A stretch of 64,000 nt of DNA from Escherichia coli (GCF_009931435.1 NZ_CP043414.1); one strand, 5' to 3'; counted from the stretch's first letter, positions 8,548-34,760 are shown. The notes: a model not told the origin generated them from the sequence alone. Program-made: numbers and translations.

Positions 8548-9272
8548 CATGACTCCTTGCTCATCGCATGAAGACTCCGAGAGTGAACCCCGTTAGAAAG
8601 GGTCACACGCATGCCCCAATACAAAATTATTTGCTCGCCTCTATCGCTGCCTTTTCCTCAAAAGTGGAAAAGACAATGATAAAAAGTTACAAATATGTTA
8701 ATGAATAAACCAAATTGATCCCGTAATTATATTACGCCGCAAAATCCTTACAATAAACAGGTTTTTATTGAGCAAATTTGCATTTTTCGACAGTGATCAA
8801 TTTATAGCGAAATTGTCACGACCTCACCAATTTGATCTACGACAATTTATCGTGTTTTGCAGATTTTTTTCAAGAATTAAAAATTGATTTATATCAAAAC
8901 CAATCAAATATGTTAATTATGTATAAACCATAGACCATTGGTAATTTTATTGTTAATTTATTGTGAAATATTTATGTAACACAATTATTACAATAAAAAG
9001 ACATAGATAAAAAACCAGTGTTTTATTTAACAGAATCGCCTTATCAACTTTTTATAATACCAATTGATTAGAGTAGCCAATTTGTTGCTATTTTACATAA
9101 CATATTTTTATCAAAGTTAATTGATTGTTGCCTTTATGAGCATCGCCGTAAGACCGCCATGTTATTGTTTCATTTGTAATAATCACCAATAAGTATCGAT
9201 GAGAGAGATATCGCTTAACAGAGGCGACTGTGTCTGCATGAACACAGGCAACTTTCGCCTGATAAACGAAAA
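8548..9272. promoter_or_regulatory. Long AT-rich cydA upstream control region, shared divergently with the 9273 ORF; includes a perfect FNR-type box TTGATttatATCAA at 8884..8897
   Basis: Match to the TTGAT-N4-ATCAA FNR consensus seen directly; cydAB is known to be Fnr/ArcA controlled through a long multi-promoter region. Confidence 0.5.
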
Positions 9273-10295
9273 ATGAGCGATTTTTGCAAGTTAGTTTTTC
9301 TATTGCCGGGTACGCTGAGCGCCTCGCTTGATTACAATGAGGTTGCTGCCATGGGTCTTGATAATATAGGTTCTGTTGTCAATCGCTTCTCTGGTTGGCC
9401 ATCAAATGATCCTCTAAAAACAGATAACGAATCAATGACATCACCCGTGACTGTGCAGGTAATAAAGTTGATTGCCGCCATCCTTGACCCACATCGGATA
9501 GTCGTTGGTATCGATACACTTTATACAACGCAGCGCAAAACATTTACCTCAGAGGGTCAACAACTCATTGAATCAGCATTGAAAACACTTAATGTGATGA
9601 ATTTAAATAACCTGGAAACAGATCGTGATGAGGAGGGTAACTATCTGGCTTTTGGATATAACGTTGACACTCCTGACAGAATAACCGTTTCTGCTTATAA
9701 TGAAAAAAAACCTTTCTGTTATGGCCAATGTCTTTTAATACAGGATGAAGAACCAGATTTATTTAACCTGGTAAAAATTAAAACCTTTGAAGCCAGGCAT
9801 AATTATGTTTCTAAATTGATGAGCGATCCGGAATTTATGTTTAAATTCAGTTATAGCGCCCAACAAAATAGATTAGAACCTCATCTTCTGGTTCCCACTT
9901 ATTTCCCTCTGAAAACAAACCAACCGGTTACGCTAGAGGATGTACTGATACTTTATCGTTTCTTTAAAATGAATGGCGATTTTAATATATTAACATCAGA
10001 TGAATACATGAGTATCATGACACCTCTGATGAAGTGTGAGCGTAGTATCCACGACCATAACAGGTATGTGACGGGCAAAGATGCTCTTCTTCTGGACAAT
10101 CCTCCGTCTGGTAACCAGATATATTTCCATATTTCCCCTGACGAATCAGCAACACTTGTCCTTTATTTTTCAGACAATAACCTTGAATCCTTCGTCTTTG
10201 AAAATGATATTCCGAGCCAGTATCGACATTTCAAAATGTTTACCAATTTAGCACTAGTTATTGATCAGTTAACCGACGCCAATCAAATACTTTAA
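9273..10295 (+). CDS. Hypothetical protein (340 aa), AT-rich, no recognisable domain
   Basis: Long uninterrupted ORF in a strongly AT-rich stretch unlike the flanking core genes; alternative start at 9351 (MGLDNIG...). Confidence 0.5.
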   Translation: MSDFCKLVFLLPGTLSASLDYNEVAAMGLDNIGSVVNRFSGWPSNDPLKTDNESMTSPVTVQVIKLIAAILDPHRIVVGIDTLYTTQRKTFTSEGQQLIESALKTLNVMNLNNLETDRDEEGNYLAFGYNVDTPDRITVSAYNEKKPFCYGQCLLIQDEEPDLFNLVKIKTFEARHNYVSKLMSDPEFMFKFSYSAQQNRLEPHLLVPTYFPLKTNQPVTLEDVLILYRFFKMNGDFNILTSDEYMSIMTPLMKCERSIHDHNRYVTGKDALLLDNPPSGNQIYFHISPDESATLVLYFSDNNLESFVFENDIPSQYRHFKMFTNLALVIDQLTDANQIL

Positions 10296-10374
10296 TTTTC
10301 TATACAGCCCTGTGTAAAATATTGCTAAACAGTGCCCGGGGTTGATTTTTATTCCTCACGGTGATATTTAAATC

Positions 10375-10797
10375 ATGACACCATCTCAGCTCTCTTTTAA
10401 TACTCTTCCTGTCAATGCAACATGCACTTCAGAGATAACAGTAAACACACAAAAATTCTCTGACATCCTCTACTCAGTGGGGTATTCCCTAAAGGATCTG
10501 GCTTATCTGAGCAGATGTCTGGCATCATTACACCCGACACTCGCCAAAAACATTTATGAAACGGAAAATCTCAGCGATCAAAAATTACTTTATATAGATT
10601 GCCGTAGTACAAATGAAATCAAGATAAATATCTTTTTGGGTCAAAAAAGAGAAGAATTAATCGAAATTAGTTCTGATACAGTCATTTTTTCGATACTGTC
10701 TTCATTGATTGACTCAGTTATTTCTGAACATCGACATCAAATCCCCGTTAACGATTCAAATAATTCTGAACTATTTTATGAGGATTATACTGATTAA
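10375..10797 (+). CDS. Hypothetical protein (140 aa), AT-rich, acidic C-terminus
   Basis: ORF immediately downstream of and co-directional with the 340-aa ORF; no recognisable motif. Confidence 0.45.
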   Translation: MTPSQLSFNTLPVNATCTSEITVNTQKFSDILYSVGYSLKDLAYLSRCLASLHPTLAKNIYETENLSDQKLLYIDCRSTNEIKINIFLGQKREELIEISSDTVIFSILSSLIDSVISEHRHQIPVNDSNNSELFYEDYTD

Positions 10798-11341
10798 ATC
10801 CACTCTGTACGAACCTGTCCTGCATTTATGCCAGAAGTATTAGAATCTTTGCTTAACGTTACTCATACAGTAGCACCTTCATGTGCCTCTCTTTTTTACG
10901 AAAAATCAAAAGAGCTAACAAAAGTCATTCTTCGCATGAATCATTAATTATTTGTTATTTTCAACATTATTTTTACATTAAGCATATATGAATTGCAGTG
11001 AAATTCGACTTAACTTTTATGAAATGCATTTACTCATGGCTAAAGCCACGTCACAAAAATGCAAATTAGAAGTTGATCACAATTATCTCAATCCATCAAA
11101 TCAAGTTAATTTTAAAAATTTAACATCCATGACATTAGTTGACATAACACGCTGAATTAAAATGAGAATTTAAAAAAACACTTTAAACAATCATTTCCCG
11201 AAAGACATTTTGAAAATAGATCAATTGCAACATTACGGTCAGATAAAGACACTCCTCTGATATTAAACCTGTGCCGTTATGAACGGCCATAAATACGACG
11301 TGTGTAACTTAATTTACTCTCTGTCTTACAAAGGATTACCC

Positions 11342-11791
11342 ATGAAGAAAGCAACACTTGTGATTGGCGTTATTGGCGCGGACTGCCATGCAGTAGGCAA
11401 TAAAGTTCTGGACCGCGTTTTTAGCAACCATGACTTCAGAGTCATTAATCTGGGCGTAATGGTCAGCCAGGACGAATATATTGATGCTGCCATTGAAACT
11501 GGCGCTGACGCGATTGTCGTCTCCTCTATCTATGGGCATGGCGATATCGATTGTCTGGGCATGCGCGAACGCTGCATCGAGCGTGGGCTGGGTAACATCC
11601 TGCTCTATGTGGGCGGTAACCTGGTGGTCGGAAAACATGACTTCGCTGACGTGGAAACCAAGTTCAAAGAGATGGGATTTGATCGCGTCTTTTCCCCAAG
11701 TCATGACTTAGAAGATGTTTGTCAGCTGATGGCCCACGATATCAACCAACGTCATGACGTTGATACTCGCATTCTTGAAGAGGCAATCTGA
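11342..11791 (+). CDS. glmS: Glutamate mutase sigma (S) subunit, B12-binding (methylaspartate mutase small subunit)
   Basis: [24 protein letters not shown]... carries the DxHxxG cobalamin-binding motif and aligns by eye with clostridial GlmS/MutS; start at 11342 chosen over the track's 11279 because of the RBS. Confidence 0.85.
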
Positions 11792-13179
11792 TGCAAATCG
11801 TCTCTGTCGATATTGGATCGACGTGGACCAAAGCAGCCCTCTTCACCCGGGAGGGGGACGCGTTAACGTTGGTTAACCACGTTCTGACCCCAACCACCAC
11901 CCATCATCTGGCGAAGGGGTTTTTCTCCAGCCTGGACCAGGTGTTAAACGTAGATGATGCCCTCCCCCTGTTAAACAGTGGTGAGGTTGCATTGAAGTAT
12001 TCCTCCTCTGCCAAAGGTGGGCTGGCGGTTGCCGCAATGGGAATAGTGCCTTCTATCACTCTGGAAACCGCGAAAGTAACCGCTCACTCTGCGGGTGCTA
12101 AAATTGCGCAATATTACGCCTACAAGCTGAACCGCCGTGATATCCAGGCACTGGAAGAAACGCAGCCCGATATTCTCTTGTTCACCGGCGGCACCGACGG
12201 CGGAGAAGAAAGCTACGGACTGAATAACGCCCGTGTGCTGGCAGAATCCAAACTCGACTGCGCCATTATTTATGCCGGAAACCGGGATATTCAGGACAAG
12301 GTGCAGGAGATCCTCGGGCATAAAGACCTGACCATCGTCGACAACGTTCTGCCCGATCTTGACCATCCGAACCCTTTAGCTGCACGCCAGGCTATCTGCG
12401 ACATATTCCTTAAACGCATCGTTAAAGGGAAAGGGCTGGATGTCATTGTTGATAAAACAGGCGAAGAACCAATGCCGACACCATGGACGGTCTTTGAACT
12501 GGTTAAGGCAATCAGTAACGTCGATCACAGCTGGAAAGAGTTCATGCTGATCGACATGGGCGGCGCAACCACCGATGTCTATTCCGCCTGTGCCAACACG
12601 CTCTCGCCCGACACTGTTTTACATGGCGTACCGGAACCCTTCGTAAAACGGACGGTGGAAGGCGATCTGGGAATGCGCGTCTCGGCAATGGTGGTTGGTG
12701 AAAGTGCGAAAGAGTTAGTCAGTGTGAATTTTGCTCAGCAACCCGCACAGTTGGACGCTTTTTATCATTACCTCCGTCATCTAGTCGCTCATCCCGACTA
12801 CTTACCCGCGAATGCAGATGAAAAATATTTCGATACCGTCCTGGCCGGACTGTGTGTGGGTTATGCCACCGAAAGACATGCGGGCACCAAAAAAGAGGTC
12901 TGCACCTGCGTCGGCAATGTCGATTTACAGATGGGACGTGACCTGACAACCGTGCGTAAAGTCGTGGGTTCCGGCGGATGGCTCTCGCGTGCCAGTCAGT
13001 TCGATATGCATCACTGGTTGAAATACCGCGAGTTAAACGACGACGGTAAACGCATTCTCTTACCGACCGAATTTGAATATTACCGCGATTCCCGGGGGCT
13101 ATTACCACTGCTGGCAAACGTCGCCAGAGTCGATCCGCTGGCCGCCGCGCGCACCAGTATTCAATGCTTAACCCTATAA
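11791..13179 (+). CDS. glmL: Glutamate mutase accessory protein GlmL/MutL (putative reactivating chaperone)
   Basis: 462-aa ORF sitting between the S and E subunit genes, as in clostridial mutS-mutL-mutE operons. Confidence 0.7.
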   Translation: MQIVSVDIGSTWTKAALFTREGDALTLVNHVLTPTTTHHLAKGFFSSLDQVLNVDDALPLLNSGEVALKYSSSAKGGLAVAAMGIVPSITLETAKVTAHSAGAKIAQYYAYKLNRRDIQALEETQPDILLFTGGTDGGEESYGLNNARVLAESKLDCAIIYAGNRDIQDKVQEILGHKDLTIVDNVLPDLDHPNPLAARQAICDIFLKRIVKGKGLDVIVDKTGEEPMPTPWTVFELVKAISNVDHSWKEFMLIDMGGATTDVYSACANTLSPDTVLHGVPEPFVKRTVEGDLGMRVSAMVVGESAKELVSVNFAQQPAQLDAFYHYLRHLVAHPDYLPANADEKYFDTVLAGLCVGYATERHAGTKKEVCTCVGNVDLQMGRDLTTVRKVVGSGGWLSRASQFDMHHWLKYRELNDDGKRILLPTEFEYYRDSRGLLPLLANVARVDPLAAARTSIQCLTL

Positions 13180-13197
13180 CAATTAAGGCTGCAATCA

Positions 13198-14643
13198 ATG
13201 GAACTTCGAAATAAGAAATTAACCCATGACGAATTCATGACCGAGCGGCAACAGGTATTGAAAACCTGGGAAACCGGCAAGGATGTTGAAAACTTTGAAG
13301 ATGGCGTTAAATACCAACAAACCATTCCTGAGCATAAACGCTTCTCTCTTGCCCTGCTGAAAGCAGACAAGGAAGGTAAAACCCTTAGCCAACCGCGCGC
13401 AGGCGTGGCGCTGATGGACGAACACATCGAACTACTGAAAACACTACAAGAAGAGTGCGATCTGCTGCCGAGCACTATCGATGCATATACCCGTCTGAAT
13501 CGGTACGAAGAAGCTGCTGTAGGGATTAAAAAATCCATCGAAGCCGGAACCTCTAAACTGAACGGTTTACCGGTAGTTAACCACGGCGTCGCAGCTTGCC
13601 GTCGCCTCACCGAAACTCTGCAAAAACCGCTACAGATCCGCCACGGCACGCCAGATGCGCGTCTGCTGGCTGAAATCTCGATGGCCAGCGGCTTTACCAG
13701 TTATGAAGGCGGCGGCATTTCCTACAATATTCCGTATGCCAAGCGCGTAACGCTGGAAAAATCGATCCGCGACTGGCAGTACTGCGATCGTTTAATGGGG
13801 ATGTACGAAGAACACGGGATCCGCATCAACCGCGAACCGTTTGGCCCACTAACGGGTACGCTGATCCCGCCGTTTATCTCGCACTCTATCGCAATAATCG
13901 AAGGCTTGCTGGCACTGGAACAGGGTGTGAAGTCTATCACCGTTGGTTATGGTCAGGTCGGTAGCCTGACGCAGGATGTTGCGGCGATCCAGTCTCTGCG
14001 GGAACTTGCACACGAATATTTTCAGAGCTATGGCTATACCGACTACGAATTAAGTACCGTGTTTCACCAGTGGATGGGAGGCTTTCCGGAGGACGAATCG
14101 AAAGCGTTCGCCATTATCTCCTGGGGTGCTGCAGTCGCGGGGATGTCTGGTGCTACCAAAGTCATCACCAAAAGTCCGCACGAAGCCTGGGGCATCCCGA
14201 CTGCTGCTGCCAACATTCAGGGGCTAAAAGCCTCCCGCCAGATGCTCAACATGGTCAACGAGCAGAAATTCCCGCCGTGCCCGGCGGTTGAACTAGAAAT
14301 TGAACTGATTAAGAGCGAGGTTCGCGCTGTACTGAACAAAGTGTTCGAACTGGGTAATGGTGATATTGCGCGCGGTACGGTGCTGGCATTTGAAGCGGGC
14401 GTACTGGATGTGCCGTTTGCACCAGCCGCCTGCAACGCGGGCAAAATTCTTCCGGTCCGTGACAACACCGGCGCGATACGCGTACTGGAAGCCGGAGCCG
14501 TTCCATTGCCAAAAGATATTCTCGACCTCCACCACGATTACGTTGCGGAACGCGCGCGCTTTGAAGGACGCCAACCGACATTCCAGATGGTTGTAGATGA
14601 CATCAATGCTGTATCCCACAGTAAATTAATAGGAAGACCATAA
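13198..14643 (+). CDS. glmE: Glutamate mutase epsilon (E) catalytic subunit
   Basis: 481 aa; MELRNKK...QPRAGVALMDEHIELL...PSTIDAYTR...GGGISYNIPYAK matches recalled Clostridium GlmE along its length. Confidence 0.9.
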   Translation: MELRNKKLTHDEFMTERQQVLKTWETGKDVENFEDGVKYQQTIPEHKRFSLALLKADKEGKTLSQPRAGVALMDEHIELLKTLQEECDLLPSTIDAYTRLNRYEEAAVGIKKSIEAGTSKLNGLPVVNHGVAACRRLTETLQKPLQIRHGTPDARLLAEISMASGFTSYEGGGISYNIPYAKRVTLEKSIRDWQYCDRLMGMYEEHGIRINREPFGPLTGTLIPPFISHSIAIIEGLLALEQGVKSITVGYGQVGSLTQDVAAIQSLRELAHEYFQSYGYTDYELSTVFHQWMGGFPEDESKAFAIISWGAAVAGMSGATKVITKSPHEAWGIPTAAANIQGLKASRQMLNMVNEQKFPPCPAVELEIELIKSEVRAVLNKVFELGNGDIARGTVLAFEAGVLDVPFAPAACNAGKILPVRDNTGAIRVLEAGAVPLPKDILDLHHDYVAERARFEGRQPTFQMVVDDINAVSHSKLIGRP

Positions 14644-15884
14644 TGAAAATAAAACAGGCCCTTTTTACCGCTGGCTACTCCTCATTCTATTTCGATGATC
14701 AGCAGGCGATAAAAAACGGAGCGGGTCACGACGGCTTTTTCTACACCGGAGAGCCGGTAACACAGGGGTTTAACGCCGTACGTCAGGCCGGGGAGTGCGT
14801 TTCGGTTCAGTTGATTCTGGAAAACGGTGCGGTCGCCGTAGGTGACTGTGCTGCCGTACAGTATTCCGGGGCAGGCGGTCGCGATCCACTGTTCCTCGCA
14901 GAGCACTTTATTCCGTTCCTCAACGACCATATCAAGCCATTACTGGTAGGCCGCGATGTGGATGCTTTCCTGCCGAATGCCCGTTTCTTCGACAAATTGC
15001 GTATTGACGGCAACTTGCTGCATACCGCCGTACGTTACGGATTATCACAGGCGCTGCTTGATGCTACCGCGCTGGCAACCGGCCGTCTGAAAACTGAAGT
15101 GGTCTGTGATGAATGGCAGTTGCCACGCGTGGCGGAATCCATTCCATTATTTGGTCAGAGCGGCGACGATCGATATATCGCCGTCGATAAGATGATCCTT
15201 AAGGGCATCGACGTGCTGCCCCATGCGCTGATTAATAACGTCGAAGAGAAACTGGGCTTTAAAGGTGAAAAACTGCGCGAATATGTCCGCTGGTTGTCAG
15301 ATCGCATTCTGAGCAAGCGCACCAGCGCACGCTACCACCCTACCCTGCACATCGATGTATACGGCACTATCGGTCTGATCTTCGATATGGATCCGCTTCG
15401 CTGTGCGCAATACATCGCCAGTCTGGAAAAAGAGGCGCAAGGCCTGCCGCTCTACATTGAGGGGCCGGTCGATGCCGGTAACAAGCCCGATCAAATCCGC
15501 CTGCTGACCGCGATTACCAAAGAGCTGACGCGCCTCGGTTCCGGCGTGAAAATCGTGGCCGATGAATGGTGTAACACCTACCAGGATATTGTTGATTTCA
15601 CTGATGCCGCCAGTTGCCACATGGTGCAAATCAAAACCCCGGATCTGGGCAGTATTCACAACATCGTCGATGCAGTTCTTTATTGCAACAGCCACAGCAT
15701 GGAAGCGTACCAGGGCGGCACCTGCAATGAAACTGATGTCAGTGCCCGCACCTGTGTCCACGTCGCCCTTGCTGCTCGCCCCATGCGTATGCTGGTAAAA
15801 CCAGGGATGGGCTTTGACGAAGGCCTCGATATCGTCTTCAACGAAATGAATCGTACTATCGCGCTGTTGCAGGCTAAGGATTAA
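14643..15884 (+). CDS. mal: 3-Methylaspartate ammonia-lyase (methylaspartase)
   Basis: 413-aa enolase-superfamily ORF (MKIKQALFTAGYSSFYFDDQ...), same length as clostridial MAL; start overlaps the glmE stop. Confidence 0.85.
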   Translation: MKIKQALFTAGYSSFYFDDQQAIKNGAGHDGFFYTGEPVTQGFNAVRQAGECVSVQLILENGAVAVGDCAAVQYSGAGGRDPLFLAEHFIPFLNDHIKPLLVGRDVDAFLPNARFFDKLRIDGNLLHTAVRYGLSQALLDATALATGRLKTEVVCDEWQLPRVAESIPLFGQSGDDRYIAVDKMILKGIDVLPHALINNVEEKLGFKGEKLREYVRWLSDRILSKRTSARYHPTLHIDVYGTIGLIFDMDPLRCAQYIASLEKEAQGLPLYIEGPVDAGNKPDQIRLLTAITKELTRLGSGVKIVADEWCNTYQDIVDFTDAASCHMVQIKTPDLGSIHNIVDAVLYCNSHSMEAYQGGTCNETDVSARTCVHVALAARPMRMLVKPGMGFDEGLDIVFNEMNRTIALLQAKD

Positions 15885-15887
15885 CAA

Positions 15888-17258
15888 ATGGCTCGTTCTT
15901 TTAAAGTCTTATCGCCAACGGCAATCCTCGGGTATGGATTCCCGGAAGAGAGCTTCCGCAAAGCGATGGCAGAATCGCCCGATCTGATCGCCGTTGATGC
16001 AGGCTCTTCCGATCCTGGCCCCCACTACCTCGGGGCGGGCAAACCGTTTACCGATCGCGCAGGGGTCAAGCGCGATCTGCGCTATATGATCACCGCAGGC
16101 GTGCAAAATAATATACCGGTGGTGATCGGAACGGCCGGCGGTTCTGGTGCCGCTCCACACCTGGAGTGGTGCCGAGAAATAATTCATGAGATTGCCCGGG
16201 AAGAGCACCTCGCGTTCTCGATGGCGCTGATCCCGGCAGACGTTGACAAAGCCATCGTCCACCAGGCGCTGGATAACGGCAAAATCACAGCGCTGGATTT
16301 TGTCCCGCCGTTAACCCACGACGCGATTGACGAAAGTACGTATATCGTCGCGCAAATGGGCATCGAACCCTTCCAGCAGGCGCTGAAAGAAGGCGCGCAA
16401 GTGGTGCTGGGCGGGCGCGCTTACGACCCGGCCTGCTTTGCTGCGCTACCGATCATGCAAGGCTTTGATGAAGGTCTGGCGCTGCATTGTGGGAAAATCC
16501 TTGAATGCGCGGCAATCGCCGCAACGCCCGGCTCAGGCTCTGACTGTGCGATGGGCATCATTGATGACAACGGCTTTACGCTGAAGACATTTAATCCGAA
16601 GCGTAAATTTACCGAAACGTCAGCGGCTGCACACACACTGTATGAGAAATCCGATCCCTACTTCCTGCCAGGACCTGGCGGCGTGTTGAACCTGAAAGGC
16701 TGCACATTTAAAGCGGTCAATGACGGCGAAGTGTACGTCAGCGGTTCTAAGCATGAAGAAACGCCGTATGCCCTGAAACTGGAAGGTGCGCGGCGGGTGG
16801 GCTTCCGCTGTCTGACCATCGCAGGAACGCGCGACCCGATCATGATCGCCGGGATCGATAAAATCATCGATGAAGTCAAAACCAGCGTTTCGCGTAACCT
16901 GTCGCTCGACGATGACAGCATTCGCATCAATTTCCACCTGTACGGCAAAAACGGGGTGATGGGCGACCATGAACCGATGCAAACTGCCGGGCATGAGCTG
17001 GGGATTGTCCTTGATGTAGTTGCACCGACCCAGGATATTGCCAATAGCGTTTGCTCGCTGGTGCGCTCTACCATGCTGCACTACGGCTATGAAAACCGCA
17101 TCGCTACCGCAGGCAACCTGGCGTTCCCGTTCTCCCCTTCTGATATCCAGGGCGGGCCGGTATACGAATTTTCCATATATCACCTGATTGAAGCCAACGA
17201 CGCTCTGCGTTTTGATTTCCATATTGAACAGGTGACGCCAGAAGGAGTTCAGGCATGA
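15888..17258 (+). CDS. DUF1446 (AtuA-like) family protein, function unknown
   Basis: 456-aa ORF tightly linked downstream of mal; sequence resembles the acyclic-terpene-utilisation AtuA-like family as recalled. Confidence 0.6.
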   Translation: MARSFKVLSPTAILGYGFPEESFRKAMAESPDLIAVDAGSSDPGPHYLGAGKPFTDRAGVKRDLRYMITAGVQNNIPVVIGTAGGSGAAPHLEWCREIIHEIAREEHLAFSMALIPADVDKAIVHQALDNGKITALDFVPPLTHDAIDESTYIVAQMGIEPFQQALKEGAQVVLGGRAYDPACFAALPIMQGFDEGLALHCGKILECAAIAATPGSGSDCAMGIIDDNGFTLKTFNPKRKFTETSAAAHTLYEKSDPYFLPGPGGVLNLKGCTFKAVNDGEVYVSGSKHEETPYALKLEGARRVGFRCLTIAGTRDPIMIAGIDKIIDEVKTSVSRNLSLDDDSIRINFHLYGKNGVMGDHEPMQTAGHELGIVLDVVAPTQDIANSVCSLVRSTMLHYGYENRIATAGNLAFPFSPSDIQGGPVYEFSIYHLIEANDALRFDFHIEQVTPEGVQA

Positions 17259-17572
17259 AACAGTCAATTGTCTCACTGGCGCAAGTCATTCGTTCGAAAA
17301 ATGCCGGACCTTACGAACTGGTTTTAGATATTTTATTTAAAACGAAAGAAAACTATGAGCGAGTAAAATCATCAGGGCAATTAACCCCAGAACTGATTGC
17401 GCGCTTATATCATGTTGAACCTGACTTTATTCATCGTATTGTCTGGTTTGATCCTTCTAACGCAGTAAAAATTGTCATGCCACGAGATATTATCTCCGGG
17501 AATGTAGGTGACAATGATGTCTATGGCGCACAGCAACATGCACCTTTATTAAATATGAGTTTCGATTTGTAA
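17255..17572 (+). CDS. DUF4387-family small protein (partner of DUF1446 proteins)
   Basis: 105-aa ORF overlapping the previous stop by 4 nt (translational coupling). Confidence 0.55.
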   Translation: MKQSIVSLAQVIRSKNAGPYELVLDILFKTKENYERVKSSGQLTPELIARLYHVEPDFIHRIVWFDPSNAVKIVMPRDIISGNVGDNDVYGAQQHAPLLNMSFDL

Positions 17573-17732
17573 AAATCCGAACACTTTTAGCCAACTGACA
17601 TCCCGTCACTTATTGCAGCTCAACACTTCAGCTATTTGTAAGGTTGTTATAGCAGGTAGATGCCTGAATCTCTATTCAGGCATCCACTTCTCCTGATTCT
17701 GATTTATCGCCGTGCACCTGATGGAGGAAAAA

Positions 17733-19013: not shown

Positions 19014-19120
19014 GGGGGATCTTAAGCAATCAGAAGCCAATGACTACGCATTTTTATAAGCCGGATCATGAAGTTAGACGGCAATTAAGTAACACTAACG
19101 TTTAAGGTGAAAAGTGAAAT

Positions 19121-20773: not shown

Positions 20774-20782
20774 GGAAAATGA

Positions 20783-21385: not shown

Positions 21386-21418
21386 TAACTGCGCCTGGCA
21401 TCCAGCCAGGCGCAGGTT

Positions 21419-22324: not shown

Positions 22325-22471
22325 AATGCCGTCCCTTAAAAATAGTTTAAACCATCAAAAATACATTACTTATTACGAAGTAATGGTAACCAAAGCAGCA
22401 ATAAATAATTTATAAGAATCATGATTAACATTTATAACCCAGTAAGCCTGGCGTGACAATTATCTTAATCA

Positions 22472-22509
22472 GATAATAATAATCCGAAAAGCACAGCACC
22501 TTTCGGATT
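22472..22509 (-). terminator. Hairpin downstream of the hut-like operon (candidate terminator)
   Basis: atccgaaa-N-tttcggat inverted repeat in the AT-rich spacer between the HAL-like gene and the LysR gene. Confidence 0.4.
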
Positions 22510-22594
22510 ATCAGGAATTACATTAAGTGAAAATTATTAAATTGATATCATTTATCATATCTGTGGATATAATGATAAACAATCAACATAGATT

Positions 22595-24265: not shown

Positions 24266-24315
24266 TGTGTTTCCTTATTTTGATGAGTTTAACAACGGAT
24301 TACTGCAACAACCTC

Positions 24316-25266
24316 TTAATTTGTTTTATCTGTTTTTCCTCGACGGACAATAGTGGCAGCCAGGCGAGCGGCAACCTTCGCGGTCAAATTATCGCGGTCC
24401 AAATCTGGGTTCAGTTCGGCAATATCCGCAGCAATCAACTTCTCGCTACCGGCAATTAAATTCACAATAGCCTCAGCAATATTTAATGGCACGCCTAACG
24501 GCGAAGGCGCAGAAACGCCAGGAGCCTGATAACCCGGTAAGACATCAAGACAAATCGTTAAATAAATGGCGTCACACGCCTGAATATCTGCCGAGAGCGC
24601 ATTAACAATCTCATGCAAACCACGTTCAAATTGCAGAGATTCATCCAGCCAATAACGCACACCAGGACAATCAGCACGATCAAATAACGCCTGAGTGTTG
24701 GCATAACGGCTTATTCCCAGCACGCGATAATGAAACGGTTTGCCATGCTGCGCATTCCACTCCTGCATCTGCCGAAACGGCGTACCCGAATTGGCCTTTT
24801 CCGCCATCCGCAAATCAAAATGCGCGTCAAGGTTGACTATCAGCAGTCGCCGAATATCCGGACGCGACTGCATAATCCCCTGAAATGTTCCCCATGCCAC
24901 TTCATGACCGCCGCCCAGAACGACCGGCAAACTGCCGCGCGCAATTGCCATAGCCACGTTTTCCGCCAGACGGTTTTGTGCGGGTTCCAGCGCGTGGTCT
25001 TCGCTTTGCACGTCACCCATGTCAAAAATAGCGCCTTCATGGAGCACTGGCATATTGCCCAACATGCTGCGTAATGCGCCCGGTCCGCCTGCTGCGCCCG
25101 CTCGCCCACCGTTACGTTGCACCCCGTCATCGACGGCAAAACCAATCAGCGTACTGCCTCCATGACTTTGTTCGGTAAACGGTTTTACATGCTGATGCCA
25201 GCGGGTGCTGACGCCAGTTTCCTGCGAGTCAACACGTCCACTCCATGCCATAAATGTTTGCTTCAT
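24316..25266 (-). CDS. hutG: Formimidoylglutamase (arginase-family HutG)
   Basis: Arginase/ureohydrolase-like ORF; start placed at MKQTFMAWSG so the ATG overlaps the hutI stop. Confidence 0.75.
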   Translation of the reverse strand: MKQTFMAWSGRVDSQETGVSTRWHQHVKPFTEQSHGGSTLIGFAVDDGVQRNGGRAGAAGGPGALRSMLGNMPVLHEGAIFDMGDVQSEDHALEPAQNRLAENVAMAIARGSLPVVLGGGHEVAWGTFQGIMQSRPDIRRLLIVNLDAHFDLRMAEKANSGTPFRQMQEWNAQHGKPFHYRVLGISRYANTQALFDRADCPGVRYWLDESLQFERGLHEIVNALSADIQACDAIYLTICLDVLPGYQAPGVSAPSPLGVPLNIAEAIVNLIAGSEKLIAADIAELNPDLDRDNLTAKVAARLAATIVRRGKTDKTN

Positions 25267-26477
25267 TACCAACTCCTTTTTCCGCCGACAATCAGCCCCA
25301 GACAAGGCTGATGTCCAAACCAGTAAGCCAGCTCACGCGGATGATTAAGATCCCAAACAGCCATATCCGCCCGTAGTCCCGGCGCAAGTTCACCCCGATC
25401 AACAAGTCCAAGCGCTTTTGCCGCATGACGTGTAACGCCCTGAACGGCTTCCAGCGGGGTCATGTGAAACAGCGTACAGGCCATATTGATCATCAACTGC
25501 AATGACATGTTGGGAGACGTTCCGGGGTTATGATCCGTGGAGATGGCAATCGGCACACCTGCGGCCCGCAGAGCGACAATCGGCGGCAGATGGGTTTCGC
25601 GCAGGAAGTAATAAGCACCGGGAAGCAAAACCGCCACTGTTCCAGCCGCTTTCATGGCGGCGATCCCCGACTCGCTCAGGTACTCCAGATGATCGCAGGA
25701 GAGTGCAGAAAACGCCGCTGCCAGCGCCGCGCCTTGCTGGTCAGAAAGCTGTTCGGCATGCAGTTTTACAGGTAATCCATAGCTTTGCGCTTTACTGAAA
25801 ACGCGCCGTACCTGCTCTGGAGTAAAGGCGATGTTTTCACAAAAAGCATCAACTGCATCAATCAGCCCCTGTTCATGCAACACGCACATCCAGTCGCAAA
25901 GCGCCGTAATGTAATCATCACTGCGCCCGGCAAACTCTGGCGGCAGGCTGTGCGCCCCGAGAAACGTAGACTGAATATGTAACCCGGTAGATTGCTGCAA
26001 GCGGCGGATCACGCGTAAACAACGCGCTTCATCTTCCAGCGTTAAGCCATAACCCGATTTGATTTCAAGCGTACTGACGCCTTCACGTTGCCAGTTTCGC
26101 AGTCGCTGCGCCGCCAGTTCAAACAGCTGTGTTTCGCTGGCTGCCCGCGTGGCATTAACCGTAGATAAGATCCCGCCGCCCGCTCTGGCGATATCTTCAT
26201 AAGCCACGCCTTGCAACCGCATCTCAAACTCGTTCGCCCTCTGGCCGCCATACACCAGATGTGTATGACAATCTACCAGACCGGGTGTCAGCAACTTACC
26301 CTGTAGATCGTGTTCTTCTGTAATATCAGCCGTCAGTTCACGGGGGATCTGCGTGGCCTTCCCAAGCCAGACAATCGAGTCACCGCGGCTGATTAATGCA
26401 CCGTTTTCAATCACCCCCCAATCATTAGCCGAAAGCGTCGTCAGGGTGGTATTTCGCCAGAGCGTAAATGCACTCAT
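25266..26477 (-). CDS. hutI: Imidazolonepropionase
   Basis: Amidohydrolase ORF with DCHTHLVYGG metal-binding motif; start at MSAFTLW overlapping the hutD stop. Confidence 0.85.
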   Translation of the reverse strand: MSAFTLWRNTTLTTLSANDWGVIENGALISRGDSIVWLGKATQIPRELTADITEEHDLQGKLLTPGLVDCHTHLVYGGQRANEFEMRLQGVAYEDIARAGGGILSTVNATRAASETQLFELAAQRLRNWQREGVSTLEIKSGYGLTLEDEARCLRVIRRLQQSTGLHIQSTFLGAHSLPPEFAGRSDDYITALCDWMCVLHEQGLIDAVDAFCENIAFTPEQVRRVFSKAQSYGLPVKLHAEQLSDQQGAALAAAFSALSCDHLEYLSESGIAAMKAAGTVAVLLPGAYYFLRETHLPPIVALRAAGVPIAISTDHNPGTSPNMSLQLMINMACTLFHMTPLEAVQGVTRHAAKALGLVDRGELAPGLRADMAVWDLNHPRELAYWFGHQPCLGLIVGGKRSW

Positions 26478-27064
26478 AAGGATTTTTCCCCTCGTAGATA
26501 ATAAATCCACCAACCCGCCAGCTCGCCGACGGAGACTTTTTGCTGTGGTACGAAACGCCAGGAGTTGCCATCAGGCGCAAACCGCCATAACAACGTATTC
26601 GCCGTTACAAACACCCTGTTCTCGCCGCTTATCCACTCCCCTTCACACAGCGTGAACAGCCCCGCTTGCGCATGCGCCGGAGGGAGCCAGTCAATGACGC
26701 TTTGCACACGACGCATCCCCGCATCGCCTTCCCGCGCCATAATATTCAGATCGCGAACCCCGCCGCCCAGCAGCTGACAATCAGGCATTGCTTCTCCAGG
26801 GAAAATTAAGGCGGGATCGTGACGTTGCAGGTTGATGATCGAATCGGCAAACGTTAGCTTCACCCCTTCCCCGTCGAGGATCGCGAGGCCACGAACCACG
26901 CCAGGCCACGCTGAAAAAGGGCCATCCTGACTGACATTCGCCATACTGATGCGCAACAACCAGTTTTCATCATCGGGCCAGGCAAGCAGCTGTCGGGTAA
27001 ACCCCCCGCCGTTGCGCCACGGTTGCAGCGGCTTATCCATTGCAGAAATCAGCATCGGTTCCAT
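26474..27064 (-). CDS. hutD: HutD-family protein
   Basis: 196-aa ORF (..PWRNGGGFTRQL..) resembling HutD; embedded in the hut cluster. Confidence 0.65.
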   Translation of the reverse strand: MEPMLISAMDKPLQPWRNGGGFTRQLLAWPDDENWLLRISMANVSQDGPFSAWPGVVRGLAILDGEGVKLTFADSIINLQRHDPALIFPGEAMPDCQLLGGGVRDLNIMAREGDAGMRRVQSVIDWLPPAHAQAGLFTLCEGEWISGENRVFVTANTLLWRFAPDGNSWRFVPQQKVSVGELAGWWIYYLRGEKSL

Positions 27065-27065
27065 A

Positions 27066-28475
27066 TTAAGACTCGGGATAAATCGTATAAGCAGGAACGC
27101 AGGTGGTGCGTTTGGCCCACGGGTAATAGATAACGGCGGTAATTAACAAGCCGACAATCCAGGAGATATCCGCCCCATCCATCAGGACAGAAATGGGTCC
27201 CTGATACAGTTTTTGATTCAGGAAGGGGATCTGCACCAACACGCCTACGCCATAGCACGTCAAAGCGGTTTTGTTATACGCGCCATAACGCCCTTCCGGG
27301 GTATAAAGCGCTGGAATATCGGTTTTACCTTGTGAGATGAAGTAATAATCGATGAGATTAATGGCACTCCACGGAACAAATACCGTCAACAGTAGCAGAA
27401 CGAAGTTTTTGAAATTATTCAAAAAATCTGCGCTTGCCGCCAGCGCGACGACCATCGACAACAGCACGAACCCTACAACGTAGGCAGCACGAACACGCTG
27501 TGAAACCTGACTGCGATCATTAAAGGCGCTGACGGTCGCCAGAATCGACATAAAGCCACCGTAGGCATTCAAACAGTTCACCGTCAGTTTGCCGCAAACA
27601 ATCACCATATAAATCAGAATGGCGAAGGTGGGTCCGGCTAACTCGCCCATAAAACCAACCTGATCCTTCAGGAAGTTAGCACCACAGGCCGCAACAAGTA
27701 CGCCAAACGTCATGGCACATTGCGCACCAAGCGTGGTTCCCAGAAAGGTGGCAAAGAAGATTGATTTTGCTGGCGTATCAGAGGGTAAATAGCGGGAATA
27801 ATCAGAGGCGTAAGGGGCAAACGTTAATTGCCATCCGGCAGAGAGAGCAATCGTTAATAAAAAGACCGACAGACTAAATGGCTTTTGACCAAATGCCGCA
27901 GCCACATCGTAGTGACCGCTAAGTTGAGTGGCCAGGTAAATAAACCCCAGAATACTTAATATCCCTGCAACACGGCCAACGACGTGAATTAGTTTATAAC
28001 CGACCAATGCGATCATCGCGGTCAGCATGCCGAAAATAATAATTCCGGTCGATGCCGATTCGAAACCAAATATCCGGTTAATCGCCTGACCGGATAATAC
28101 TGTACCCGTCGCGGCAAATCCAAGGTACATAATAATCACCATCAGTAACGGTAGCGCCGCTCCTTTAACGCCAAAGCGGATACGACTGGAGATCATCTGG
28201 GGTAATCCCAGCTTTGCCCCCTGCGACGAGTGCAATGCCATTACTGCACCACCAATAATATTACCGATTAATAAACCAATTATTGCTGACATAGCTTCGG
28301 AGCCAAAAATAATCGCTAACGCGCCGTCCACCACTGCGGTAATTTGTAAGTTAGCACTTAGCCATAAAGTAAACTGACTAGATGGCGCGCCGTGGCGAGC
28401 AGACTCAGGAACGGCGTTAATCGTATTTGATTCTAATACTGGCTTTTTACTGCGGATAGGGCTGCTTGATTCCAT
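27066..28475 (-). CDS. NCS1-family (cytosine/purine/uracil/allantoin-type) permease; candidate histidine/urocanate/imidazole-compound importer
   Basis: Polytopic membrane ORF; start set at MESSSP with AGGAGA RBS (track ORF starts at 28520). Confidence 0.7.
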   Translation of the reverse strand: MESSSPIRSKKPVLESNTINAVPESARHGAPSSQFTLWLSANLQITAVVDGALAIIFGSEAMSAIIGLLIGNIIGGAVMALHSSQGAKLGLPQMISSRIRFGVKGAALPLLMVIIMYLGFAATGTVLSGQAINRIFGFESASTGIIIFGMLTAMIALVGYKLIHVVGRVAGILSILGFIYLATQLSGHYDVAAAFGQKPFSLSVFLLTIALSAGWQLTFAPYASDYSRYLPSDTPAKSIFFATFLGTTLGAQCAMTFGVLVAACGANFLKDQVGFMGELAGPTFAILIYMVIVCGKLTVNCLNAYGGFMSILATVSAFNDRSQVSQRVRAAYVVGFVLLSMVVALAASADFLNNFKNFVLLLLTVFVPWSAINLIDYYFISQGKTDIPALYTPEGRYGAYNKTALTCYGVGVLVQIPFLNQKLYQGPISVLMDGADISWIVGLLITAVIYYPWAKRTTCVPAYTIYPES

Positions 28476-28638
28476 GAAAAAGTCTCCTGCAAAATGAGAG
28501 GTCATTTTTTGAAACAGCAATAGAGGGTCGGGAGATATTTTTCTCGACGATGTAAAAATATTTTTTGATAATTATTGTTATACAGGCGAATTATTCTCCG
28601 CCTGTATTAGCGCAAATATTAAATGACGGCGTTAATAT

Positions 28639-30336
28639 TTAGCGAATCATCGGTAATTTCAGACCATAGTTTTTGGCACATTCAATTGCCGCTTCATAAC
28701 CCGCATCCGCATGACGCATAACCCCGGACGCACAGTCATTCACCAGCACACGCGCCAGACGTTTTTCGGCTTCTTCGCTACCATCGGCAACAATAACCAT
28801 CCCGGCGTGTTGTGAATACCCCATCCCGACGCCGCCGCCATGATGCAGGGATACCCACGTTGCTCCCCCTGCAGTGTTGAGCAAACCGTTGAGCAACGGC
28901 CAGTCAGAAACCGCATCACTGCCATCAAGCATGCTTTCGGTTTCGCGGTTCGGGCTGGCGACAGAACCGGTATCAAGATGATCGCGCCCAATCACAATCG
29001 GTGCTTTTAGTTCACCGTTGCGCACCATTTCGTTGAATGCCAGCCCCGCCAGGTGACGCTCACCAAGCCCCAGCCAGCAAATACGTGAAGGAAGTCCCTG
29101 GAAGGCAATGCGCTCGCGCGCCATATCCAGCCAGCGATGCGTCAGTACGTTATTGGGGAACAACTCTTTAATTTTGGCATCGGTTTTATAGATATCTTCC
29201 GGGTCGCCAGACAGCGCCACCCAACGGAATGGACCTTTGCCTTCACAAAACATTGGACGAATATAAGCCGGAACAAAGCCCGGGAAATCAAAGGCATTTT
29301 GCAGACCTTCGTTGAAGGCCACCTGGCGGATGTTGTTGCCATAATCGACAACCGGGATCCCCATCGCCTGGAAGTCCAGCATCCCCTGAACATGTGCGAC
29401 GCAGCTCTGTGCCGCTTCTTTTTGCAATCTGGCGTGTTGCTGTGGATCCTGCTGTGCAGCGCGCCATTGTTCTACGCTCCAGCCCATCGGTAGGTAGCCA
29501 TAAACCAGATCGTGAGCGGAAGTCTGGTCGGTTACCAGATCCGGCTTAATCGCCCCCTGATGCGCACGTTTCACCAGCTCAGGAACAATTTCCGCCGCAT
29601 TGCCCAACAGCGCGATTGAAACAGCGTCTTTGCGCTCGGTATGGTATTTAATCAGCGCCAGTGCATCATCAAGATCTTTCGCTTGTTTATCGACATAACG
29701 GGTACGCAGTCGGAAGTCGATGCTACTTTGCTGGCACTCGATATTTAATGAGCACGCCCCCGCCAGAGTCGCCGCCAGCGGTTGTGCGCCACCCATACCA
29801 CCGAGCCCCGCGGTCAGGATCCATTTTCCACTCAGCGAATTGTTGTAGTGCTGACGACCCGCTTCAACAAAGGTTTCGAACGTTCCCTGCACAATGCCCT
29901 GACTACCGATGTAGATCCACGAGCCAGCGGTCATCTGGCCGTACATGAACAGACCTTTACGATCCAGTTCATTGAAATGATCCCAGTTGGCCCATTGCGG
30001 TACCAGGTTAGAGTTGGCAATCAATACGCGCGGCGCATCGGTATGCGTTTTAAACACGCCTACGGGTTTACCGGACTGAACCAGCAGTGACTCATCAGCT
30101 TCCAGATTTTTCAGTGATTCAAGGATCTTGTCAAAACACTCCCAGTTACGTGCCGCACGACCAATACCACCATACACCACCAGATGCTGTGGATTTTCGG
30201 CAACGTCGGGATCAAGGTTGTTCTGCAACATCCGGTAGGCTGCTTCAATTTGCCAGTTTTTGCAGTGCAGCTGCGTACCGTGTGGCGCATGGATTACACG
30301 GCTGGTATCAATACGCGGGTCTGAAGGCTTACTCAT
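28639..30336 (-). CDS. hutU: Urocanate hydratase (urocanase)
   Basis: About 565 aa from [47 protein letters not shown]; AGGAGA RBS upstream; the track ORF extends to 30435. Confidence 0.9.
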
Positions 30337-30454
30337 GAATCTTCTCCTGTTACTTGATAAAATTAAACGCTGTAATCGGTCAGAAAAAACGAACGAATGA
30401 ATATAGAAACGGTTTCTATAATTCCCGTTTATCATTTTGTATTATTAATTCATT

Positions 30455-30487
30455 TAGTGAATATTGTTTGTCTTGGTATATTCACTA
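30455..30487. promoter_or_regulatory. Perfect 10-bp inverted repeat (TAGTGAATAT-N13-ATATTCACTA) in the hutU leader; candidate operator
   Basis: Seen directly, 20-50 bp upstream of the hutU start, in the divergent hutU / rtcB-like intergenic region. Confidence 0.4.
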
Positions 30488-31093
30488 TGAATATAAATTC
30501 AAAACCACCAACGCGTTGTATGCGAATTCAATATGCTTAATTTAACTTGTCGAAAAAGTGATATTGTTGGCAAAATATTTTCTAATTTGAACATATGAAT
30601 ATGATGAGATTGCAAGATGTCAGTAATTTAATTATCTAAGAAATGCGTTAATAACGACCAGATATTAGCGTAACAACAGGTGTTCCGACACCACACAGTG
30701 CGCATAACACAATGATATTTAAAATAAGATCTTCATTATTCGTCATAAAGACATGTTTTATTATCATTAATAATCCATTTGTTTTCATCCCACTTTTGAT
30801 AATTAAAAAACGGCAACAATGGCTAGTTACCCGACGTAAAAATAGGCGTAAAAATAAATCTTAAAATATATCCACTGGAAATTATCATTTTTCATATTTT
30901 ACAATCTGGCGTCGATAACTTACCCCTTTTATAACACCCCCGTTTGTTAATAGTCTTTTTTATCTTGTATTGATCGTCATTGCTGCATACACTACGCGCG
31001 TTTTCTTTCCCTTTTGCTGGCTGCTGACCGGAAAGACAAAATTACCCTCGCAATACAGGGGGTTGATTAACGTCTATATTTCAGGACAGCGTT

Positions 31094-32492
31094 ATGCATC
31101 ATCTTTCAAGGCTTGATAAAGCCTTTCTGCGCAAAGGGATCCAACTTTCCCGCGCCAACAATATTGTTTCATTATGTCGTCCATCAGGAGCCAGTGCCCG
31201 CGTACTGCTGCCGGACGAACTGCCGCTGGAAGAAAAAGCAGTGACACAACTGCTTGATTTTGCAGAAGTGAAGATACCAGGCCATCCAGGTTACGTACGC
31301 CAGACGTGCGCGACGCCAGATTTTCATCCCGGCAATGGCGTCCCCGTTGGCGCGGTGGTGGCCTCAACGCCGGATTTAGTCATTCCCGCCGCCATCGGCA
31401 CCGATATTTCTTGTGGCATGCGGCTGCTGACGACCGGATTAACCCTTGAGCAAGCCGAAGCGAATAAAGAAATAATCACTCAGCGGTTAACACAAGTGTT
31501 ACTGCAGAATGAGCGCGATGTTCCGTTATCCGCACGAGCGTTCACCGCGCTTTTTGATGGCGGACCGGCAGATTGCATGTCGGCCTTGCCATCAGCAGGT
31601 CTCTGGACACGTACAAATATCCCCCGGATGACGCAAGAGATTGACCGCTGCATTGGGCTTAACGAGCATAACAGTCATTCGCGTTATGCCCCCACCTGCC
31701 CTGCTGGCAACGGACCGCGCATTACTCCGCGATCCTTGTCTTGGTACGCCGGGTTCAGGTAATCATTTTATTGAACTTCAGGTCGTTGATAGCGTGGTTG
31801 ATCGCCATGTAGCCTGGCAACAAGGGCTGAAAACAGGCGATATTGTGGTGATGATCCACAGTGGATCGCGAGATGTTGGCTTTTACGTCGGAAGACGCTG
31901 GATGGATCGCGCCCGTGCTGAATGGCCCACCGGACATAAACATCCACAAAGCGGGTTATATGGTCTGGCAGGCGGACTGGCGGAGGAATATCTACAAGCG
32001 ATAGGAATGGCGGCGCGTTACGCGTGGTTAAATCGCGTGACAATTGCCGAAATGGTGCGCGTATGTCTTGCCAATCTCTTTCATCAGGACAATTCGCATC
32101 TGGTGGTGGATGTGCCACATAACATCATCCTTCGCGAGCATGAAATGAATATTCATCGCAAAGGCGCAACACCGGCACGAGTGGGCAATCTGGCGTTAAT
32201 CCCCGGTTCAATGGGCGATTATTCGTGGCTTGCGGTTGGTTGCGGCAACCCGGAGTGGCTGTGGTCATGCAGTCACGGAGCAGGACGCAGCCAGCGTCGG
32301 CAGGCCATGCGCTCACGCGCGACTGAAGAGTCAACGCTGCCGTGGCAATGCGTCACATTGCGCGAAGAACGACGTCTTGAAGAAGCGCCAGCGGCTTATA
32401 AAGATATTGGTCCGGTTATCGAAGCCCAACAAGAAGCCGGATTAATTCAGCCTGTGGTCAGATTTCGACCGTGGTTAACGTTTAAGGCATAA
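31094..32492 (+). pseudogene. RtcB-family RNA ligase-like gene split by a frameshift (or a sequencing error) near 31690
   Basis: Two overlapping ORFs in different frames (31094..31762 and 31641..32492) carry RtcB-like motifs (DISCGMRLL; GSGNHFIELQ; CSHGAGRS); C5 run at 31688-31692. Confidence 0.6.
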
Positions 32493-32493
32493 A

Positions 32494-32590
32494 AAAGGCC
32501 ATCATACGATGGCCAACCATGTCGAAACCGACAGCCCTTCGCCATTCCTGTAGAGGGAAGCGGCGAGGGCTATTTCTTATTACAGATATT
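32494..32590 (-). ncRNA. sdhX: sucD 3' UTR with intrinsic terminator; position corresponds to the 3'UTR-derived sRNA SdhX (RybD)
   Basis: ggccatc-atac-gatggcc hairpin followed by a T-run on the - strand right after the sucD stop; the sRNA identity is by position only. Confidence 0.4.
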
Positions 32591-34625: not shown

Positions 34626-34699
34626 GTGTTCTGTCCATCCTTCAGTAATCGTTATCTTTTAAACCGTAGACCGAATATTTCGTATCGCTTCCGGGTATT

Positions 34700-34760
34700 G
34701 TCGGTCACCCGTAGGCCTGATAAGACGCGTCAGCGTCGCATCAGGCTTCAATTGCCGGAG
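34700..34760. repeat. REP (repetitive extragenic palindrome) in the sucB-sucC spacer
   Basis: gcctgataagacgcgtcagcgtcgcatcaggc palindrome. Confidence 0.7.

Follow-up and report, generated by a model that had tools for sequence, protein, structure and literature searches.

The locus studied here raises the question of how approximately 24 kb of DNA came to lie between cydA and sucD in a genome of Escherichia coli, at the position where K-12-type genomes have mngB-mngA-mngR, and what a hut-like operon within it may do. We analyzed a stretch of 64,000 nucleotides from this genome (GCF_009931435.1, NZ_CP043414.1), hereafter called the window, with all positions counted from its first letter. Within it, cydA (6979-8550, minus strand) forms the left flank and sucD (32590-33459, minus strand) the right flank of the interval in question, which the initial annotation had regarded, from 8551 to 32589, as an accessory replacement relative to K-12. 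We consider it likely that the window carries a rare form of an old locus with many variants, in which modules were gained beside mng, mng was later deleted, and the hut-like operon acts on a histidine betaine. As a genome feature, it is ordinary, a locus that varies between strains through deletion and homologous recombination, and it is partly published.

The borders of the accessory DNA were determined by blastn. Homology to the K-12-type locus ends at 8922 and restarts at 32487, and the accessory DNA comprises 8923-32486, approximately 23.6 kb that are not found in K-12-type genomes. In Citrobacter koseri, Salmonella and Enterobacter, homology on the cydA side also ends at 8922-8925, as in K-12. 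The conserved cydAB upstream region at 8551-8922 is therefore ancestral DNA outside the accessory part, and an interval starting at 8551 includes 372 bp too many. On the other side, junction sequences place the right junction and the conserved sucD 3' region at 32487-32589. This segment is kept in all E. coli and contains a terminator-like hairpin at 32497-32514, located 3' of sucD; the region presumably also encodes the SdhX small RNA.

Between these borders, gene assignments were made with NCBIfam models and the RefSeq annotation of a 99.2%-identical genome. They confirmed the gene content first listed for the interval: two open reading frames (ORFs) of no known family, hyp1 and hyp2; a mesaconate operon; a LysR-family regulator; the hut-like cluster, which includes a lyase gene; and a frameshifted gene of the rtcB type. 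Neither mng nor TPR sequence was found in the 64-kb window at the DNA or protein level, which also settles the search for mng genes that had been proposed, as far as the window is concerned.

To place this form among its relatives, we surveyed 5426 complete E. coli genomes. The edges of the interval were matched in all but one of them, with at least 80% coverage in only 142. A complete hut block (22343-30985) was found in 143 genomes; in 837 others only its first 390 bp are left, and rtcB is present in 289. The mngBAR genes occur in 3884 genomes and are absent from 1542, and an 80-bp junction joining the rtcB end to the sucD 3' region occurs in 993. As the genomes with mng (3884), those with the junction (993) and the approximately 549 others add up to the full set, no relocated mng copies are needed. 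In approximately 146 further genomes, the mesaconate operon and rtcB stand together with mng. The counts for hut, rtcB, the junction and mng are mutually consistent.

Seven arrangements of the locus were distinguished. The K-12 type has mngBAR alone (arrangement 1), a second form has a TPR-repeat gene alone (arrangement 2), and a third combines the TPR gene with mngBAR (arrangement 3). The O145/O157 type carries hyp1, hyp2, the mesaconate operon and LysR (arrangement 4), to which the type of strain 98224 adds rtcB and mngBAR, with an extra internal deletion in strain A34 (arrangement 5). The window type has hyp1, hyp2, mesaconate operon, LysR, hut and rtcB and lacks mng (arrangement 6), and the full type has all of these contents including mngBAR (arrangement 7; nine complete genomes). 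A context survey based on SucD gave only forms already found, and the literature yielded nothing relevant on hut genes in E. coli phylogroups or on an O-island name.

The full type is central to the history of the window form. The intermediates imply an ancestor with hut, rtcB and mng, and we therefore joined window positions 29400-32486 to two pieces of strain 98224, the spacer between rtcB and mngB and the 3' end of mngB, to form a chimeric query. This query was matched end to end in nine genomes (97.5-97.6%). The gene order in strain EC12 is cydA, hyp1, hyp2, glmS-cobO, LysR, lyase-hutU, rtcB, mngB, mngA, mngR and sucD, and the window matches it colinearly apart from an exact gap of 5609 bp at 32487, corresponding to mngBAR. 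The breakpoints of the gap are identical against EC12 and 98224, lying five bases before the rtcB stop codon and at the base after the mngR stop codon, with an overlap of one base. Colinearity with the full form and the exactness of this gap therefore identify the window form as the full form minus mngBAR. Hence the idea of a replacement stands for the difference in content and the loss of mng, and fails for a single block swap, given that the full form carries both contents and was followed by the 5609-bp deletion.

The position of mng beside sucD is ancestral, as follows from the order sucD-mngR-mngA-mngB-cydA in Enterobacter hormaechei, from MngB orthologues that are 79-84% identical across Citrobacter, Salmonella, Enterobacter and Klebsiella, and from the K-12 mngB-cydA spacer, which is weakly similar to the C. 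koseri and Salmonella spacers. The O145/O157 type retains four ordered remnants, matching window positions 22647-22732, 23075-23136, 32219-32275 and 32449 onward, which are the lyase 3' end, an internal piece of the lyase gene, an internal piece of rtcB, and the rtcB 3' end with the junction found in the window. In Escherichia whittamii, remnants extend to 22909 (315 bp of the lyase 3' end), cover 29696-29829 (134 bp of hutU) and start again from 32368 (125 bp of the rtcB 3' end). This species shares the rtcB-end/sucD junction with the window, and its mesaconate and suc genes are 88.8% and 95.6% identical, respectively, to those of the window. Because the remnants are ordered, the O157/O145 and E. 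whittamii forms can be said to descend from a window-like form by deletion. Those of E. whittamii further imply that the combination of hut and rtcB without mng is older than the species boundary or has crossed it, and that it decayed independently at least twice. As for the age of the mesaconate cluster, nucleotide identity between E. coli and C. koseri or Salmonella is 80-81% for the mesaconate genes, compared to 76-77% for mng and 85-88% for cyd. These intermediate values indicate a cluster approximately as old as these genera and not a recent import.

Comparison of the genomes that retain hut revealed patchy identity. R32_14_1F is 99.7% identical to the window in hut and 96.3% in rtcB. In AR0349 and 4973, the lyase-hutD part (22343-27000) is 90-95% identical and the NCS1-hutU part (27001-30985) 98.7-99.5%. 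Synonymous divergence amounts to 0.21-0.23 for the lyase gene and 0.05-0.09 for fumD. This pattern points to a deep allelic split in the hut block, with recombination of long-diverged forms and possibly introgression from another Escherichia lineage. The patchy identity, together with the absence of mobility genes, fits homologous recombination between diverged forms, and the rearrangements themselves look like illegitimate deletions.

From these observations, the following course of events can be proposed. The ancestral content would have been mngB-mngA-mngR, as in K-12 and Enterobacter, and approximately 24 kb of modules would have been placed between the cydA upstream region and the mngB 3' end in the Escherichia lineage. 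One illegitimate deletion of mngBAR, leaving the one-base overlap at the junction, would then have produced the window form, while other lineages would have lost hut, or hut and rtcB, instead. Homologous recombination, both within the island and in the core genes on either side, would have carried the forms from one lineage to another. The locus documents with unusual clarity the origin of an apparent "replacement island", with full, intermediate and decayed forms that survive and can be ordered against outgroups.

Other histories have to be weighed against this one. A one-step cassette exchange, in which a foreign 24-kb block was swapped for mngBAR by homologous recombination to give alternative alleles, would agree with the clean borders lacking any mobility gene and with the distribution of the two contents, of which most genomes carry only one. 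It is nonetheless quite unlikely, as both contents stand side by side in the 9 genomes of the full form, approximately 146 more combine mesaconate, rtcB and mng, and the right junction of the window is an exact mngBAR deletion from the full form. We also regard it as unlikely that rtcB beside sucD is the ancestral state in Escherichia and that mngBAR was inserted later between them. In Enterobacter, mngR adjoins sucD with order and orientation unchanged; in C. koseri and Salmonella, mngB abuts the identical cydA upstream boundary; and the identity of MngB across genera is what vertical descent predicts. This scenario does draw on the rtcB-end/sucD junction shared by E. whittamii and on the edges of the mng block, which coincide exactly with the mngB and mngR stop codons in three contexts. 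A classical integrative island or prophage remnant whose site-specific recombinase has since been lost is extremely unlikely: the AT-rich orphan genes and spacers would suit it, against which stand the lack of tRNA or transfer-messenger RNA (tmRNA) genes, integrase, flanking repeats and matches to phage or defence families, the host-like composition of most genes, and mesaconate genes that diverge between genera about as much as neighbouring chromosomal genes do.

The history of gain beside mng followed by deletion has its own difficulties, and three observations weigh against it. In C. koseri and Salmonella, glmS-glmL-glmE-mal lie on the opposite (mngR/sucD) side of mng with their direction of transcription kept; the order of the mng and glm blocks appears to have been swapped during evolution, and the past of the locus is more complex than one insertion. 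The 98224 and A34 types have, between LysR and rtcB where hut sits in the window, a filler of 463 bp that shows no similarity to the window or to the other loci compared and is at odds with a clean deletion as well as with a clean insertion. Lastly, no donor or intermediate was found for the first gain of 24 kb, and the modules may have arrived separately.

The second part of the question concerns the hut-like operon, and here the lyase is of most interest. The gene at 22595-24265 (minus strand), annotated as a member of the HAL/PAL/TAL family, is predicted to encode a periplasmic trimethylammonia-lyase free of the 4-methylideneimidazole-5-one (MIO) group, with ergothionase as its closest solved relative. 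More specifically, the Treponema denticola ergothionase 6S7J scores 295 bits, compared to 168 bits for the histidase (HAL) of Pseudomonas putida, and on the hutH model the protein reaches 277 bits, where the cut-off is 539. In place of the histidase motif GSVGASGDL it has GSIGAADI, and the MIO-forming Ala-Ser-Gly is absent here and in all 120 closest homologues. The N-terminus, MKGLIRRVTVTVVLWSVCSIAMA followed by KST, resembles a Sec signal peptide with a site between A-M-A and K, as judged by eye, and homologues at 85% and 68% identity have kept this putative signal peptide. The long start is preceded, at a distance of five bases, by a ribosome-binding site (AAGGAA), which the internal Met22 lacks. 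The gene is under strong purifying selection, with a ratio of nonsynonymous to synonymous substitution rates (dN/dS) of 0.04-0.07.

Members of the MIO-less family remove trimethylamine from histidine betaines and require a trimethylammonium leaving group; Lys384 of the Treponema enzyme is indispensable for ergothioneine, and its position is taken by Asn439 in Swoo_3913, the Shewanella woodyi enzyme proven to be a histidine-betaine lyase (bioRxiv 10.1101/2025.08.13.670108, 10.64898/2026.04.22.720169). The window lyase has Ile438 there, within a motif that reads L-H-I-P and not I-Q-K-P. Among the 120 closest homologues, 103 have I-Q-K, an Escherichia clade and an Enterococcus clade have L-H-I/V-P, and none is of the Asn type. 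With Ile instead of Asn at the specificity site and no Asn-type near homologue, the window lyase is therefore not an orthologue of Swoo_3913. It is predicted to belong to an uncharacterised specificity clade that should not act on ergothioneine. In the Enterococcus clade without the lysine, the enzymes are cytoplasmic, and the operon consists of genes for a sigma-54 activator, a coenzyme A (CoA)-transferase, an MFS transporter, the lyase and an NMO-type flavin mononucleotide (FMN) oxidoreductase, a context that suggests a different fate of the enoate product.

The remaining five genes of the operon are all on the minus strand. Urocanate hydratase is encoded by hutU at 28639-30336 (TIGR01228, 934 bits), imidazolonepropionase by hutI at 25266-26477 (TIGR01224, 452 bits, cut-off 298) and formimidoylglutamase by hutG at 24316-25266 (TIGR01227, 288 bits, cut-off 229). 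All three are above their equivalog cut-offs and canonical. HutU scores 948 bits with the P. putida urocanase 1UWL, and on the thiourocanate hydratase model it reaches 670 bits, below the cut-off of 930. A HutD/Ves-family protein is encoded at 26474-27055, as seen from the RefSeq annotation of relatives and a weak Ves match. The gene at 27066-28475 encodes an NCS1-family permease (NCS1 subfamily match, below cut-off), for which we propose a role as urocanate importer; we take HutTu of Pseudomonas to be an NCS1 protein as well. HutTu (PA5099) is a dedicated urocanate transporter in that genus (PMC12977541). The pair of permease and lyase recurs in an unrelated contig, where a permease of 85% identity adjoins a lyase of 85% identity. 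In Turicimonas, a flavocytochrome c gene precedes a lyase homologue of 57% identity, in the respiratory arrangement known from earlier work.

Taken together, this operon is probably one of histidine-betaine catabolism that releases trimethylamine. In the pathway we propose, the periplasmic lyase would cleave a sulfur-free histidine betaine, most likely hercynine, to urocanate and trimethylamine; the NCS1 permease would import the urocanate; and HutU, HutI and HutG would turn it into glutamate and formamide. Hercynine is both an oxidation product and a precursor of ergothioneine. The glutamate formed could feed the adjoining glutamate mutase pathway, although a functional link between the two operons is speculation. 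In its widest form, the proposal is that a minority of E. coli (approximately 2.6% of complete genomes) and some Escherichia marmotae have an unrecognised route from a dietary or host histidine betaine to trimethylamine and urocanate and on to glutamate, possibly then fermented by the methylaspartate pathway. We hold this to be possible, and put it forward tentatively.

Two other identities of the lyase were set aside on motif grounds. Ordinary histidine utilisation, with the lyase as a divergent histidase, would be in keeping with the canonical hutU, hutI and hutG and with RefSeq naming the lyase gene hutH in some genomes. We consider it very unlikely in view of the missing Ala-Ser-Gly, the score on the hutH model far below the cut-off and the probable signal peptide, and because the interval has neither a HutC regulator (no gene of the GntR family within 8551-32589) nor a permease of the histidine type. 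The term "hut-like cluster" used by the initial annotation is thus apt for HutU, HutI and HutG and inapt where it implies a plain histidine-utilisation set. The second identity is ergothionase itself. According to a 2026 paper, which casts doubt on Wolff's 1962 report of such activity in E. coli, the annotations of this species include no homologue of ergothionase (PMC13405746). A window lyase with this activity would explain Wolff's report, with thiourocanate processed downstream. In favour of this identity are the closest solved relative, the ergothionase lysine found in most of the closest homologues and the statement of the 2026 paper. It is rather unlikely, as the essential lysine is itself replaced by Ile, HutU fits urocanase and not thiourocanate hydratase models, and the interval has no desulfhydrase or hydantoin-propionate enzymes. 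The lyase is an ergothionase homologue present in some E. coli, though probably with a different substrate.

Action on a histidine betaine is in turn weakened by three points: the Ile of L-H-I-P differs both from the Asn of the proven histidine-betaine lyase and from the Gln that SO_3299 has there, the Enterococcus members of the clade occur in a different context without hutU, and no regulator of the hut operon was identified. Should the reading hold, the operon would be a new E. coli source of trimethylamine in the gut and would offer a candidate gene behind the ergothionase-like activity of the disputed 1962 report. With an ergothionase homologue present in some strains, the release of trimethylamine by E. 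coli from ergothioneine-related compounds becomes directly testable.

To the right of the operon, hutU and rtcB diverge from an AT-rich spacer (30337-31093, 32% guanine-cytosine (GC) content), in which a promoter scan gave matches no more frequent than expected by chance. The RtcB-family gene itself (31094-32492, plus strand), an rtcB paralogue, is frameshifted, with two ORF halves that match RtcB models. Alignment with four intact copies of 1398 bp traced the defect to one extra C in a run of C at approximately 31685-31689.

The left part of the accessory DNA consists of the orphan genes and the mesaconate operon. Both orphans are on the plus strand: hyp1 (9351-10295, 314 amino acids, GC 37.6%), the ORF of which could also start at 9273, and hyp2 (10375-10797, 140 amino acids, GC 34.8%). 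Neither has a match in Pfam, NCBIfam, PADLOC or PHROG, and single-sequence AlphaFold models were unusable (predicted local distance difference test score (pLDDT) 33-34). Among 1.84 billion cluster representatives, hyp1 has only 14 matches, fragmentary and 68-88% identical. Its ORF is open in eight of eight forms (dN/dS 0.17-0.35), and hyp2 is intact in all six forms compared (dN/dS 0.28-0.40) and annotated as frameshifted in an O145 genome. Over both genes, dN/dS is mostly 0.29-0.40. The two are real, fast-evolving orphan genes restricted to Escherichia. A phage or defence origin of hyp1, hyp2 and RtcB found no support, with no match in PHROG or PADLOC. In strain AR Bank #0349, an IS1A element lies between hyp2 and glmS and cuts hyp2 short.

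The B12-dependent methylaspartate (mesaconate) glutamate pathway operon, assigned by NCBIfam equivalog models, has nine genes (11342-21385, plus strand) in the order glmS, glmL, glmE, methylaspartate ammonia-lyase (mal), AtuA-family, DUF4387, a GltP/DctA-like symporter, fumD and cobO. Glutamate mutase S and E, GlmL, methylaspartate ammonia-lyase and the FumD-type class I fumarase are all above their equivalog cut-offs. The operon is approximately 97% colinear with O145-type genomes and colinear with the 98224 locus as well. It is followed by the gene for the LysR-family regulator (21419-22324, minus strand; GcvA-like NCBIfam subfamily match, below cut-off), which is retained in every form that has the mesaconate operon. 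This block is already published. FumD, through its O157 orthologue ECs0757, has been characterised as a mesaconase, and the cluster was reported in 26.5% of E. coli strains, with neither its expression conditions nor the fate of citramalate found (Kronen and Berg 2015, PMC4682846). The AtuA-family (DUF1446) and DUF4387 genes lie inside the operon at 15888-17572. This pair is a candidate for the consumption of citramalate, for which the published study found no enzyme.

The base composition of the accessory DNA is not foreign throughout. The AT-rich spacers seen initially are real, with 28-34% GC (33.8% for 8551-9350) compared to 48-57% for most genes. In addition to the spacers, only hyp1, hyp2, DUF4387 and lysR are AT-rich (35-45%), and all other genes resemble the flanking core genes. 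The absence of mobility signals that had been reported at the borders was likewise borne out: there are no tRNA or tmRNA genes within the window, no direct repeats flanking or spanning the borders, and no integrase, recombinase or transposase among the ORFs of the interval, of which all with at least 100 amino acids are explained by NCBIfam or RefSeq annotation. As far as can be judged from the sequence, no site-specific recombinase is involved in the history of the locus. An Rfam scan of the interval at gathering thresholds returned no riboswitch or known RNA, including a cobalamin riboswitch before glmS.

At the left edge, blastn breakpoints delimit an AT-rich spacer (8923-9350), of which 8923-9186 is also common to the TPR forms of the locus. 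Between the locus forms, only the 372 bp closest to cydA are conserved. The cydA upstream region of the K-12 type is 846 bp long, and its distal part is here swapped for unrelated AT-rich DNA, an exchange that could alter the regulation of cydAB. An AT-rich direct repeat of 26 nucleotides (85% identical) connects 8900-8925, at the K-12 breakpoint, with 10279-10304, at the end of hyp1, and is probably due to chance.

Several observations were made outside the interval. A second variable locus lies just downstream of gltA (44901-50977), where the window and R32_14_1F have a ybg-type fimbrial operon, AR0349 and 4973 have a TRAP transporter, and only a fimbrial pseudogene remnant is left in EC12. 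Three tandem naRNA4/REP-type elements (Rfam RF02564) lie between sucA and sdhB (39022-39282), and a related repeat insert of approximately 105 bp between sucB and sucC (34675-34779) is present or absent depending on the strain. The tol-pal region contains a CpoB/ybgF thermometer RNA (Rfam RF02782, 142 bits) at 378-516. For positions 40000-64000, the top match among the surveyed genomes is only 98.2% identical, and the lineage is poorly represented among finished genomes. The contig DXKH01000067.1, from the metagenome-assembled genome HRGM_Genome_0066 labeled "Citrobacter sp.", matches the window at 96% identity along 12.9 kb that take in sucC-sucD, rtcB and the entire hut block. It resembles Escherichia DNA, and the label is probably wrong or the bin contaminated.

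Finally, we compared the locus with known systems. The mngR-mngA-mngB locus of K-12 occupies the identical position between sucD and cydA with conserved flanks, and all three of its genes are absent in the window. The glutamate-fermentation cluster of O157:H7 (PMC4682846; Kato and Asano 1997), made up of glmS, glmL, glmE, mal, DUF1446/AtuA, DUF4387, a GltP-like transporter, fumD, cobA and a LysR-type transcriptional regulator (LTTR), shares gene order and locus with the window at approximately 97% identity. Of the hut block and rtcB, only remnants are left in the O157/O145 form, whereas the window keeps both.

With the classical Hut systems (hutUH-hutIGC of Klebsiella and Salmonella, and hut of Pseudomonas), the window has in common HutU, HutI, the formimidoylglutamase HutG and a HutD-family protein. 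Unlike these systems, its interval is without an MIO histidase, a HutC repressor and a histidine permease. The periplasmic trimethylammonia-lyases of Shewanella (Swoo_3913, the ergothionase SO_3057, and SO_3299; Bertsova et al., bioRxiv 2025/2026) belong to the same family as the window lyase, with which they share the lack of the MIO motif, Tyr77 and His117. The window lyase has a putative signal peptide as they do, and its identity to Shewanella members is 55-56%. Their partner is a periplasmic flavocytochrome c or a urocanate reductase that serves respiration, in a cluster of the Shewanella/Sutterella type also seen in Turicimonas, and neither of these partners is encoded in the interval of the window. 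In contrast, the window lyase has Ile as its specificity residue, and not Lys, Asn or Gln, and its partners are an NCS1 permease and the cytoplasmic enzymes HutU, HutI and HutG. In this E. coli locus, the lyase family would thus be wired to a catabolic instead of a respiratory route.

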